Part shown: positions 18,181-22,165 of the stretch, one piece after another
How the letters are laid out: every line of letters starts with the position of its first letter
Numbering within the stretch: position 1 is the stretch's first letter
Source of the DNA: Candidatus Hermodarchaeota archaeon
GTDB taxonomy: Archaea > Asgardarchaeota > Hermodarchaeia > Hermodarchaeales > Hermodarchaeaceae
Direction of reading: 5' to 3'
Assembly: GCA_016839365.1 (NCBI GenBank)
Contig: JAEOUH010000004.1
Coordinates: forward strand, 1-42,908
Length of the DNA: 42,908 nt
The notes under the pieces: generated by a model
Databases searched by the model: none
What the model was told of the DNA's origin: nothing
The model's input: only the letters and a program-made list of their open reading frames with translations
Position numbers and translations under genes: made by a program

Positions 18181-18218
18181 AACATTAGATGCTGCATGGG
18201 TGGTGCAGCGATGTTTCA
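18181..18218 (+). promoter_or_regulatory. Conserved palindromic element upstream of Lrp-like gene 1
   Basis: GCTGCATGGGTGGTGCAGC begins 76 nt before the ATG at 18267; a near-identical copy precedes the paralogue. Confidence 0.7.
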
Positions 18219-19360: not shown

Positions 19361-19400
19361 GACATTGGAACGCTGCATGGGTGGTGCGGCGGTGGTTTCA
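19361..19400 (+). promoter_or_regulatory. Conserved palindromic element upstream of Lrp-like gene 2
   Basis: GCTGCATGGGTGGTGCGGC begins 76 nt before the ATG at 19448. Confidence 0.7.
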
Positions 19401-20416: not shown

Positions 20417-20519
20417 GCAGAACAGGTCGGTTTTTGCCAACTATTGTCAGAATGAATCGTTATTTACCGCCACCAACCTTGTGAGGAGATATATAGCTTG
20501 ACTATTATAAAAAAATCAA

Positions 20520-20641
20520 CCGGGTCTTCAAGGTTCCTTCCCCTCCATTTCGGCACTTCCCGGTCCAAAGAAAATGGGTGGCAATGGACCTTTTTAGGAC
20601 AACGGATTCGGAGTTTACGTTCGATTTCCTTGAAGACCCGG
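20520..20641 (-). ncRNA. Putative 122-nt structured RNA element 1 (3' of peptide gene 1)
   Basis: Perfect 14-bp terminal inverted repeat CCGGGTCTTCAAGG; inner CUCCG/UGGAG and GGUCCA/UGGACC helices; U-tract directly downstream on the minus strand. Confidence 0.55.
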
Positions 20642-20704
20642 CTTTGGTCAGTGTCCAAGGTCCGTGTCCCTGGTGTCAGTGTCGCTCCCTAACAGTAAGT
20701 GTGA

Positions 20705-20848
20705 TTAGCGTCGTGATGTGACGATTGCAAAGTTGATTCGATCGCGGGGAGTGCCTCGTGGGTTCTTTGCTCCTGTCACAGCGCGTTCTGCAACAGGCAT
20801 TTCGACAATTTTCTTCTTTGTGTGTCCGGTTTCTTTCTTTTCGACCAT
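20705..20848 (-). CDS. Small basic peptide 1 (47 aa), unknown family
   Basis: MVEKKETGHTKKKIVEMPVAERAVTGAKNPRGTPRDRINFAIVTSRR*; GGAGGT SD; homologous to peptide 2. Confidence 0.8.
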   Translation of the reverse strand: MVEKKETGHTKKKIVEMPVAERAVTGAKNPRGTPRDRINFAIVTSRR

Positions 20849-20908
20849 TTTCTATCAACCTCCTGCCCATGCAGGACAATGATGTATAACCCAGAAATTG
20901 CCTATTAT

Positions 20909-20991
20909 TCGATGGGAGCTCGTCAGTGCAAAAATTCGATGAAAAGAGAAGAAGCGAGCCAACTTTTGCACTCCTTGGTGCAAAAATTCGA
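20909..20991 (-). promoter_or_regulatory. Conserved upstream boxes of cassette 1
   Basis: TCGATGGGAG-N6-AGTGCAAA and TTTTGCAC-N6-GTGCAAAA, repeated 518 bp away; GTGCAAAAATTCGA occurs twice (20926, 20978). Confidence 0.7.
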
Positions 20992-21021
20992 AAAAAAAGG
21001 ATTTTAGGAAATAAGGGGGGA

Positions 21022-21144
21022 ATTGGGCCCGCACAAGCTCCAAACGGAAGGAACTAAGAAGTGTGGACATCCGCTGCCGGAACGCTGCTACGCCGATCCC
21101 CCGTCAACGGATGAAGAGGTGATCGGAGGTTCTGCAGGCCCAAT
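21022..21144 (-). ncRNA. Putative 123-nt structured RNA element 2 (3' of peptide gene 2)
   Basis: Terminal stem AUUGGGCCUGCA/UGCGGGCCCAAU with one U.G pair; CUCCG/UGGAG; AUCCGUUG/CAGCGGAU. The wobble pairs form only on the minus strand; a U-tract follows. Confidence 0.55.
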
Positions 21145-21202
21145 GTCTTCGCTGCGAGCTGAATCTGGTGATCGTGTGTTCACCATGAGAATTCCTCACA
21201 GC

Positions 21203-21340
21203 TTAGCGTTTGCTTAACGCCAGCATGACTGCGTACCGAGTACGAGGTTTCGCAGTCGGGTGGGGGTTGCGGCAGCCAGCGACAAGGCGCTCACAAGCTG
21301 ACATGTTTTCGAGTTTCTTGTGTTTGTAGGATTTGGCCAT
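21203..21340 (-). CDS. Small basic peptide 2 (45 aa), unknown family
   Basis: MAKSYKHKKLENMSACERLVAGCRNPHPTAKPRTRYAVMLALSKR*; GGAGG SD; homologous to peptide 1. Confidence 0.8.
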   Translation of the reverse strand: MAKSYKHKKLENMSACERLVAGCRNPHPTAKPRTRYAVMLALSKR

Positions 21341-21426
21341 CTCAAATCCCTCCAATTGTGTTTGTCACCGGAATCCCCGGGGGGGAACCCCGTTGCAATG
21401 AGATATGGGTAAGGATTTGATATGAA

Positions 21427-21503
21427 TCGATGGGAGTAAAATAGTGCAAATGTCCGCGGTTCAAGCTCAGAAATCAAGAAATTTTGAACCGTTGTGTGCA
21501 AAA
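21427..21503 (-). promoter_or_regulatory. Conserved upstream boxes of cassette 2
   Basis: TCGATGGGAG-N6-AGTGCAAA (21427) and TTTTGAAC-N6-GTGCAAAA (21482), with the same spacing as cassette 1. Confidence 0.7.
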
Positions 21504-21643
21504 TAATGTACCAAAATCTGGCATTTCTCCGTTTTTTGCACCAGATTGGCATAATTTTAGTTTTGCAGAACCCATTTGAATAATGTCAAACGAGGTTTCC
21601 GAAAGTTTTTGGGATGTTTTTCTCCCTATCAACTGGTGGTGTT

Positions 21644-22165
21644 ATGCCAAAACAAGATGTCAAGCCGATCGAGGGTCTACAAGCATTACCCCCATTTCCT
21701 GTAGTGTTTGTCTCCGTGCAAGAGAACGTAATGACAGCAGCAGCGTTTCATTTCTTTTCATTCAATTCCCTTTGCGTGATGGTATGAATCCGACCACAAA
21801 CACACACCTTTAGCTTACTACAGCAGGCTAAAGAATTCGGAATAAATATTCCAACGATAACCCAGCTAGAAGAGGTACGTGTCTGTGGGTCCGTGTCAGC
21901 TCGGGATGAAGGCAAATTTGAGAAAACCGGATTAACCAAGATGAAAGGGAAAGTCATCGATACCGTCCTCGTGGCGGAGTGCCCTGTGAACTTGGAGTGT
22001 CGCGTCGTACACGAAGTAGAGTTTGAAGGGAGCCATCGATGGTTTGTCGGTGAGGTCGTTGCAGCTCATGTAGCCGAGGATTACCAGCGGGATCAGGCCC
22101 TGATGTATTGGATGCGAGAGTATCGCCGCGTTGGCCAAGTTTTACTCACCATCAAAGGGCAGTAA
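21644..22165 (+). pseudogene. Flavin reductase-like (flavoredoxin family) gene with an in-frame TGA
   Basis: MPKQDVKP...PFPVVFVSV..NVMTAA...CVMV*IRPQTHT...EFGINIP...CGSVSARD..KF...ECPVNLECRV...GSHRWFVGEV; TGA at 21785-21787. Confidence 0.75.

Follow-up and report, generated by a model that had tools for sequence, protein, structure and literature searches.

A small-protein and structured-RNA module, transcribed and lineage-restricted, in two tandem units of a Hermodarchaeota genome

In the CIN1 loci of Alphaproteobacteria, the small arginine-rich RNA-binding protein CcaF1 (DUF1127) is co-transcribed with 3′-UTR sRNAs bearing anti-Shine-Dalgarno (anti-SD) loops, the CcsR "cuckoo" sRNAs (PMC8034643). 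These cuckoo RNAs consist of two hairpins with CCUCCUCCC loops and constitute the Rfam family ar14 (PMC8034643). Asgard archaea are the closest prokaryotic relatives of eukaryotes, and riboregulation and small proteins are almost unstudied in them. Here we analysed a window of 42,908 nucleotides (the whole stretch of DNA under analysis) from a Candidatus Hermodarchaeota archaeon, in which a model-made initial annotation had pointed out a module of small basic peptides and structured RNAs. We found no description of this module in the literature.

Reading of the sequence placed two homologous minus-strand units, A and B, at 20509-21505 of the window (Table 1). Each of them presented, in this order, an operator palindrome, a second half-site that merges with the TATA region, a hairpin in the 5′ leader, a Shine-Dalgarno (SD) sequence, an ORF, a spacer, an end-paired RNA and a T-tract. 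The tandem arrangement proposed in the initial annotation was recovered in all its parts, as both ORFs, the RNAs, the T-tracts and the direct repeat of the upstream boxes, with a spacing of exactly 518 bp, were present. The distance of about 60 nt claimed between stop codon and RNA measured 63 nt in unit A and 58 nt in unit B, and the RNA lengths (122 and 123 nt) and the trailing U-tracts (T7 and T8) were also as described. Since the same layout and selection signatures recurred in at least 10 other species, the architecture is far beyond chance.

Table 1. Features of the two units and of the neighbouring regulator genes, in window coordinates.
Feature	Position	Strand	Basis
Unit B distal operator-like imperfect palindrome, TTTGCAC-N6-GTTCAAA	21479..21505	-	518-bp repeat of unit A box; pattern scan
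Unit B proximal half-site TTTGCAC, then ACTCCCATCGA, TATA-like TTCATATC	21419..21452	-	518-bp repeat
Unit B 5′ leader G/C hairpin	~21371..21393	-	sequence; leader comparison; contig ends with adapters
Peptide B gene, 45 aa, subtype B	21203..21340	-	SD GGAGGG at 21348-21353
Unit B spacer, long imperfect hairpin from just past the stop, GCUGUGAGGAAU...AUUCAGCUCGCAGC	21145..21202	-	MFE fold
Type B RNA domain, 123 nt	21022..21144	-	covariation, slid controls, shuffles
T8 tract after unit B	20991..20998	-	sequence
Unit A distal operator palindrome, TTTTGCAC-N6-GTGCAAAA	20961..20988	-	inverted repeat; cross-species identity
Unit A proximal half-site TTTTTGCAC-N6-GCTCCCATCGA, then TATA-like AATAATAG	20901..20934	-	repeat; cross-species identity
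Unit A 5′ leader hairpin UCCUGC-AUGG-GCAGGA, overlapping SD AGGAGGU	20858..20876 (hairpin 20861..20876)	-	compensatory variants
Peptide A gene, 47 aa, subtype A	20705..20848	-	codon-position variation; homologues
Unit A spacer, short conserved blocks TAATCAC, GACRCTGAC	20642..20704	-	cross-species identity 0.61
Type A RNA domain, 122 nt	20520..20641	-	13-sequence alignment; cross-species identity
T7 tract, archaeal terminator signal	20509..20515	-	sequence
Lrp/AsnC-type regulator, two HTH domains, 325 aa	19439..20416	+	Pfam
Second tandem Lrp/AsnC-type double-HTH paralogue, 326 aa	18258..19238	+	Pfam

The peptides quoted in the initial annotation were confirmed as minus-strand ORFs of 47 and 45 aa preceded by SDs, which aligned gap-free over 38 residues with 32% identity (pairwise E 4e-8). 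Searches of Asgard genomes uncovered the family that the annotation had anticipated, with coding-type conservation. The homologues (28 and 16) were all short, with no others, and the family has four subtypes. It occurred in one Asgard family, 17 of whose 18 genomes had it, and was absent from all 381 other genomes of the same phylum. An HMM search of 1.8 billion representatives for fused or longer forms returned three long repetitive proteins with low-complexity matches only. The variable columns at the first, second and third codon positions numbered 12/6/30 in type A (33 codons, 12 sequences), 15/11/34 in type C and 7/5/32 in type D. We judge the peptide ORFs to be genuine coding genes because of this third-position bias, their SDs and the shortness of all homologues. 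At E≤10, Pfam gave no match to either window peptide or to the 38 members of the family, and no NCBIfam match to the peptides was found; their sole PHROG match was a family with no assigned function (E 0.16), while a profile search gave no significant PDB relative and an ESM Atlas feature search gave uninformative scores of 0.82 to unnamed clusters. A viral origin was rejected, as no relative of the peptides appeared among viral contigs. The peptides are strongly basic (about 12 K/R versus 5 D/E in peptide A) and share an invariant E-R...G..N-P; an AlphaFold2 model built from the 38-sequence alignment showed three short helices at low confidence (pLDDT 64.6).

The RNA domains belong to a family with types A, B, D and E and a short type C. 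The initial annotation had considered the two window RNAs near-equal in length but diverged; the length agreement held, but the sequences were not unrelated, since types A and B share a YCCGUUG motif and a GGGYCU.../...AGRCCC closing stem and are homologous members of one RNA family. The unit A RNA is closed by a perfect 14-bp stem and that of unit B by 20-nt arms at 85%. The type B fold comprises the closing stem P1, an unpaired C/U-rich stretch, a P2 hairpin with CCGUUG and a P3 hairpin. In its alignment 93% of the cells were paired, compared to 30-47% in slid controls, 11 pairs carried double (compensatory) changes with a score reached by 0 of 500 shuffles, and G.U pairs were confined to this strand. 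The unit B spacer region also pairs in other species, with a different sequence (loci L033 and L022). Type A combines its closing stem with a CCGUUGUCC block, a GGUCC/GGACC hairpin that bears the invariant loop AUUGCCACCCA, and an invariant GGGAAGUGCC. The 13-sequence alignment contained 52 invariant columns, and identity across the domain was 0.80 versus 0.58 at codon position 3 and 0.32 in the downstream flank; the core pattern was found in this genus only. The internal fold of type A is not established because covariation was nearly absent (1 of 22 pairs). A MITE or another mobile repeat was rejected because no genome has more than one copy of an RNA type, and the copies occupy orthologous positions. 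Neither the window region nor the C, D and E loci matched Rfam 15 at E≤1, making the RNA family new, and ARAGORN reported no tRNA or tmRNA. Judged by these database comparisons, the small-protein family and the structured-RNA family are both new.

In order to read transcription, contigs from four wetland metatranscriptome runs, which may share one sampling campaign, were placed on the window. They covered solely 20522-20857 and 21028-21378, two discrete stretches of about 340 nt each that hold ORF and RNA, while no contig of the four runs covered the promoter gap or the neighbouring gene. The contig ends carried adapter at 20522-20525 (unit A 3′ end) and at 21368-21378 (unit B leader), and uncovered window stretches are not read as silence beyond these sharp adapter-marked ends. 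Single contigs of 347, 349 and 365 nt spanned both ORF and RNA, indicating that the two are co-transcribed. A putative junction of circular appearance joins the 3′ end to 21304. The contigs cannot show a processed 120-nt species, and they carry no strand, so that transcription is presumed to run along the minus strand. Altogether, the initial proposal of a transcribed, selected and previously undescribed peptide and RNA module is supported by homologues, coding-type conservation, conserved 3′ structure, the lack of a match to any known family, and RNA contigs, the latter unstranded; of the refuting outcomes named in the annotation, none of those examined was observed.

The upstream regions were also conserved. 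The palindrome TTGCAC-N6-GTGCAA occurred once in the window, compared to 0.02 occurrences expected by chance. The mean pairwise identity of the unit A distal palindrome across 10 species was 0.83, versus 0.48-0.56 in its flanks, and the proximal half-site/TATA region reached 0.88 across species. The half-site followed by CTCCCAT was found solely in the two window units within the intergenic DNA of the genome. A genome-wide palindrome scan at 3 mismatches was too permissive to define a regulon and gave few convincing extra sites (C44, C46 and C48). The unit A leader hairpin kept its pairing through compensatory changes in 11 other species. Both neighbouring regulators matched Pfam HTH_AsnC-type (PF13404, E 1e-15 to 8e-17) and HTH_24 domains in two stretches each, and every A/B locus, like the divergent loci L063-L065, had a homologous Lrp-like double-HTH gene (roughly 325 aa at the A/B loci) no more than about 1.5 kb away. 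The adjacent 325-aa protein is a candidate binder of the palindromes. A complex prediction of this protein with peptide A scored 0.01, which counts neither way.

By analogy with CcaF1/CcsR, the account that we tentatively prefer is an Lrp-controlled stable transcript that may yield two products, a mini-protein that binds nucleic acid and an RNA domain that functions from the 3′ end. Each unit would be a self-contained transcript of about 340 nt, driven by a promoter with a TTTGCAC-N6-GTGCAAA operator pair to which the adjacent double-HTH Lrp-like regulator presumably binds. The transcript would run from the 5′ hairpin through the coding region of a basic protein of 45-50 aa to a multi-stem RNA of ~122 nt with a long closing helix and a U-tract. 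The most likely mechanism is that the mini-protein acts as the nucleic-acid-binding partner of the RNA family: by attaching to the CCGUUG helix that the types share, or to the closing stem, it might determine how stable or active the 3′ RNA is or how it is processed. The unpaired, C/U-rich, anti-SD-like stretches of this RNA could then act on other mRNAs. A bolder version, a new, lineage-born archaeal RNP family in which each mini-protein sits on the CCGUUG helix or closing stem of its cognate RNA as a stable particle produced under Lrp-type (nutritional) control, and in which the anti-SD loops reprogramme translation, seems to us unlikely.

How tightly peptide and RNA go together bears directly on the role of the RNA. 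The peptide subtype matched the RNA type in every genus-1 locus examined (A-A, B-B, C-C and D-D), and in 11 genomes a distance of about 310 nt separated the D ORF from the D RNA that follows it; if entire transcription units were duplicated together, such matched types would result without functional coupling. The type A RNA was retained without a type A ORF in two species (genomes G097 and G098), standing free at loci L022 and L024 after loss of ORF and promoter. The type E RNA was found behind an unrelated, much longer membrane-protein gene, an association conserved in 11 of 15 genomes, and the sister-genus peptides were followed by plain (terminator) hairpins only (loci L021, L023 and L025). 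These exceptions together weaken a strictly cognate version of the peptide-RNA pair that had been suggested. Peptide-RNA coupling is not obligate and can be broken in both directions. The retention of type A where its ORF has been lost, and the position of type E after an unrelated gene, show that the RNA does not depend on an ORF of its own; it is a functional element by itself. This element could be purely cis-acting, a protective or terminating structure or a site for an unrelated host factor, setting the stability or translation of any mRNA that bears it, with peptides that act elsewhere (on the ribosome, DNA or a protein) and just happen to be its most frequent cargo. Such a role would suit type E as the 3′ UTR of an ordinary gene, the stable structures capping both transcript ends (the 5′ hairpin and the 14-bp closing stem), the contigs that span the full length of ORF and RNA, and the simple hairpin that suffices for the sister-genus peptides. 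A stabiliser, however, would have no use for some 50 unpaired nucleotides that never vary, and the free-standing persistence of type A at L022 and L024 would be unexpected for it; we consider a purely cis element possible but somewhat less probable than the Lrp-controlled protein-plus-RNA transcript.

The C/U-rich, anti-SD-like motifs of the RNAs (AACCUCCGAUCACCUCUU for type B, CUCCA..AACCUCUUGG for types D and E, GCCACCCA for type A) are conserved, unpaired and outside the supported helices, as would be expected of a dual-function RNA whose C/U-rich stretches sequester the SD regions of target mRNAs independently of the peptide. The B genes have a conserved ribosome-binding site, AAUUGGAGG, to which CUCCAAU of type E is complementary, and the loop GCCACCCA of type A shows 9-10 nt of complementarity to the hairpin loop in the Lrp-gene leader (UGGGUGG). 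However, these complementarities are of 7-10 nt and SD-like, for which chance matches are expected, as they are for matches of 9-11 nt in a target search by short complementarity. The A loop could pair with the Lrp leader in this genome and its closest relative only, the reason why a kissing loop was not adopted. We regard a dual-function RNA with an independent peptide as rather doubtful.

The peptides could instead serve the Lrp-like regulators, as DNA-architectural or regulator-modulating cofactors that bind the minor groove in the manner of HU/IHF arms, the RNA being unrelated. The Lrp-like genes beside the A/B and L063-L065 loci, an HU-arm-like motif (F..F.V.ERAA..GRNP) and the lack of an HU homologue in the genome are in line with this proposal, but the C and D units had no Lrp-like neighbour within 1.5 kb. 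The only PDB similarity of the peptides, to the nucleic-acid-embracing arm of HU, was not significant (profile E 0.6-0.75). Compared with the HU arm motif R-x-x-R-x-G-R-N-P-x-T-G, which includes the intercalating proline, the peptides have E-R-A and R/K-N-P equally spaced and G and T shifted by one residue. HU/IHF homology was rejected (hhalign probability 4.4%, no Pfam PF00216 match among 38 members), the resemblance being retained at motif level, and the peptides lack the dimerisation body of HU. We consider a cofactor role improbable. Finally, the toxin-antitoxin-like or attenuator-like unit raised in the initial annotation, although a small ORF adjoins a structured RNA and the unit A 5′ hairpin overlaps the SD, is very improbable. 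A toxin reading fails on the hydrophilic character of the peptides, which have a net charge of about +7 and neither a hydrophobic stretch nor a membrane segment; an antisense promoter was not seen, nor was an overlapping RNA, the contigs being unstranded. A leader-peptide/attenuator reading fails because the RNA has no conserved following gene (type A runs into its T-tract and then genes that are convergent here and variable in other species), while amino-acid conservation spans the whole peptide core and not a run of regulatory codons.

The locus reveals a conserved gene family missed by standard gene calling and supplies clear selection signatures, natural RNA-library evidence and operator palindromes beside Lrp-type regulator genes. 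A protein and RNA unit that duplicates and diverges as a block offers a clean case for the origin of cognate RNA-protein pairs. Peptides of 45-50 residues and RNAs of about 122 nt can be made, so that the RNP question can be addressed in vitro without culture. If the RNP reading were true, no earlier regulatory system of small protein and sRNA would be known from Asgard archaea, and this one would have arisen via repeated duplication of one protein-plus-RNA gene.

Autoregulatory RNA-binding proteins, such as ribosomal proteins and archaeal L7Ae, bind their own mRNA, at elements that are usually 5′ and mimic rRNA or a K-turn. The Asgard units resemble them in pairing a small basic protein with a conserved structured element on its own mRNA, but no K-turn or rRNA mimicry was identified in the Asgard RNAs. 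Type I toxin-antitoxin systems of the hok/sok type likewise encode a tiny ORF in a stable mRNA that is highly structured, at its 5′/3′ ends too, whereas the Asgard peptides are hydrophilic and basic and not membrane toxins. With HU/IHF (DNABII) arms the peptides share a basic character and the local motif hydrophobic-x-V-x-E-R-A-x-x-x-G/x-R-N-P at equal spacing; they are half the size, have neither the helical dimerisation body nor the GFGxF strand, and were modelled as helical at low confidence. Among bacterial sRNAs derived from 3′ UTRs, such as that of the glnA 3′UTR (PMC9731577), a functional RNA likewise forms the last part of an mRNA and stops at its terminator, a pattern that fits type E behind its ordinary gene; in contrast, the Asgard RNA is a multi-copy family mostly tied to one peptide family, and a separate sRNA is only putative. 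The CcaF1/CcsR loci differ in several respects: the Asgard peptides have no DUF1127 match and the RNAs no Rfam match, the RNA is a single multi-stem domain of ~122 nt with a long closing helix and not a set of repeated two-hairpin sRNAs, its motifs (CCUCC, ACCUCUU) are shorter than the CCUCCUCCC loops, and the unit has an archaeal promoter with an Lrp-type operator. Both systems nevertheless join a gene for an arginine-rich small protein to homologous structured sRNAs in the 3′ (or 5′) UTR, with intragenomically duplicated loci, C/U-rich anti-SD motifs and an RNA-ORF link that is loose in some lineages, and in the Asgard units, as in CcaF1/CcsR, ORF and RNA lie on one transcript, as indicated by the single (unstranded) contigs that span both.

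The two mini-gene units lie on the minus strand at 20509-21505, where every element listed in the initial annotation was found, and they share the same build, with unit B upstream of unit A. Their upstream boxes repeat at an offset of exactly 518 bp, and peptides A and B align without gaps at 32% identity. On the plus strand nearby (21614-22165), a flavin-reductase-like gene seems to be divided between one ORF at 21614-21787 and another at 21893-22165, and Pfam Flavin_Reduct (profile positions 77-152) matched the latter alone; a frameshift, pseudogenisation or misassembly may be the cause.

Elements of units A and B in the window, and the type E RNA elsewhere in the same genome
Feature	Position	Strand
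Unit B imperfect palindrome	21479-21505	-
Unit B half-site, ACTCCCATCGA and TATA-like box	21419-21452	-
Unit B G/C hairpin	~21371-21393	-
Unit B Shine-Dalgarno (SD), GGAGGG	21348-21353	-
Unit B ORF, 45 aa	21203-21340	-
Unit B spacer, hairpin-forming	21145-21202	-
Unit B end-paired RNA, 123 nt	21022-21144	-
Unit B T8 tract	20991-20998	-
Unit A palindrome, TTTTGCAC-N6-GTGCAAAA	20961-20988	-
Unit A TTTTTGCAC-N6-GCTCCCATCGAATAATAG	20901-20934	-
Unit A 5' hairpin, overlapping SD	20858-20876	-
Unit A ORF, 47 aa	20705-20848	-
Unit A spacer	20642-20704	-
Unit A RNA, 122 nt, perfect 14-bp closing stem	20520-20641	-
Unit A T7 tract	20509-20515	-
Type E RNA, ~150 nt, extra outer stem CGGCUCCC/GGGAGCCG	contig C17:28969-29139 (L066:2570-2740)	

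With a profile of the peptides, 28 hypothetical proteins (40-70 aa) were retrieved from among 5.8 billion, all of those with a named source coming from Asgard MAGs; exhaustive HMM searching of 1.84 billion representatives yielded 16 further short relatives and no more. No relatives were found in Pfam, NCBIfam or PHROG, none significant in PDB and none in viruses. Of the 400 genomes searched in the phylum, 17 out of the 18 belonging to the window's own family carried such peptides (1-6 copies each), against 0 out of 381 others; the own genome carries two further paralogues, on contigs C33 and C85. The four subtypes (A-D) have in common an invariant E-R...G..N-P core and a basic tail, and variable columns fall mostly at third codon positions in A (12/6/30 by position), C (15/11/34) and D (7/5/32). 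The peptides are thus genuine genes belonging to a new, narrow family. On C33, a further conserved small ORF (~27 aa, preceded by an SD of its own, GGTGG) lies between the stop of the D peptide and the D RNA (L003:~1660-1745), as also in loci L031 and L034; it ends in ...F.[FY].L...RR and is similar to the C-terminal half of the peptide family.

The RNA domains of types A, B and D span ~120-135 nt, are closed by a GGGYCU.../...AGRCCC helix and share the YCCGUUG motif; in type C, a shorter hairpin, CCGUUG is paired to CAGCGG. For type B, aligned from nine species, 93% of cells paired versus 30-47% with slid partners, both sides had changed at 11 pairs versus 2-4 in slid controls, and the covariation score was reached by 0 out of 500 shuffles. 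Many of its pairs are G.U, which would read A.C on the opposite strand, indicating that the RNA is read from the minus strand. Type A was too conserved for covariation, 52 columns being invariant among its 13 sequences; mean pairwise identity in unit A reached 0.80 over the RNA domain, compared with 0.58 for third codon positions, 0.61 for the spacer and 0.32 past the terminator. Whole-transcript folds were more stable than shuffles (z -2.0 and -3.2). The type A core pattern occurred in 11 out of 15 genomes of the genus and in 0 out of 385 outside it, and an Rfam search gave no match. By these data, the RNAs constitute a new and genuinely structured family. A few nucleotides 5' of the closing stems, spacers carry C/D-box-like words (window 20642-20704; D-type loci L003, L031, L034 and L026), namely RAUGAUGUCAC in type D and GACRCUGAC in type A.

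In every locus examined in the window genome's genus, each peptide subtype was followed by its own RNA type. However, two genomes of other species (G097 and G098) carry a well-conserved type A RNA directly after the B unit, the A ORF and promoter being absent. A fifth member, type E, homologous to type D, begins right behind the stop codon of a beta-lactamase-like membrane-protein gene; it is conserved at 76-96% in 11 out of the 15 genus genomes. A covariance model of D and E found exactly one of each in most of these genomes, the D RNA always lying ~310 nt behind the D peptide, and in the sister genus plain hairpins alone follow the peptides. The RNA domain thus functions independently of the ORF and the peptide can exist without the RNA, so that the coupling is strong but not obligate. 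In its stricter form, as an obligate pairing, the cognate pair proposed initially is weakened. The broader proposal of a selected, undescribed peptide-plus-RNA module, matching no known family, was upheld by third-position variation, type B covariation and type A conservation.

A double-HTH AsnC/Lrp-type gene of ~325 aa lies within ~1.5 kb of every A/B locus and of the divergent relatives L063-L065, which retain the palindrome, the half-site-CTCCCAT-TATA arrangement and the leader hairpin. The own genome has nine such paralogues, several preceded by TTTGCA-N8-TGCAAA palindromes and one located 1.4 kb upstream of the type E RNA. These regulators are candidates for binding the operators. On contig C44 (17700-17830, L067), an unrelated gene (at least 77 aa), oriented divergently to another Lrp-like paralogue, is driven by a promoter of the same build (palindrome followed by GTTGCAC-N6-GGCTCCCGTTGATTGATAT), so the operator system is not exclusive to the peptide units. 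In the window, both tandem Lrp-like genes have a common leader palindrome, GCTGCATGGGTGGTGC(A/G)GC, ~76 nt before their starts (18181-18215 and 19370-19390); complementarity between the loop of this palindrome (UGGGUGG) and the invariant loop of the type A RNA (GCCACCCA) is confined to this genome and its closest relative.

Small parts of the window were found in six wetland metatranscriptome runs. In the four runs assessed, whose studies are possibly one campaign, the contigs came from relatives ~90-95% identical, and cover was limited to 20522-20857 and 21028-21378, in single pieces of 347, 349 and 365 nt. Neither the promoter gap nor the DNA upstream of unit B nor the convergent regulator gene was covered, and several contigs reached the Illumina adapter (20525, 21368 and 21378). 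The contigs, which carry no information on strand, expression level or processed species, fit two discrete, short, abundant RNAs, each comprising leader, ORF, spacer and RNA domain. The deepest contig (run X18, record 12, depth 46; 21028-21304) was circularly permuted. In it, position 21304 inside the B ORF was joined to the 3' end of the closing stem of the B RNA with 7 additional nt (UCCGGUU, RNA sense), and the same 27 nt were repeated at both ends. Possible explanations are a processed RNA, circular or self-ligated, with its 5' end at 21304, a template switch, or an artefact of assembly.

Altogether, the best fit would be a regulator-controlled, structurally capped transcript with two products, a basic mini-protein likely to bind nucleic acids and a putatively functional RNA domain at the 3' end, in which unpaired C/U-rich stretches resembling anti-SD sequences are conserved. 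Its main rivals are that the RNA domain is a purely cis-acting stabilising or terminating element, that the transcript is a base-pairing dual-function RNA, or that the units have a DNA-architectural role together with the Lrp-like regulators. The last was considered because the best PDB similarity, although not significant, matched peptide residues ~12-32 (20753-20815 in peptide A) to the DNA-embracing HU arm (F..F.V.ERAA..GRNP), with E-R and N-P spaced as in the peptide; the own genome has no HU gene. The toxin-antitoxin and attenuator readings of the initial annotation were rejected. Although it has no homology with these units, and neither of its hallmarks (a DUF1127 domain and cuckoo RNAs) was found in them, CcaF1/CcsR of Alphaproteobacteria (PMC8034643) represents the closest described logic.
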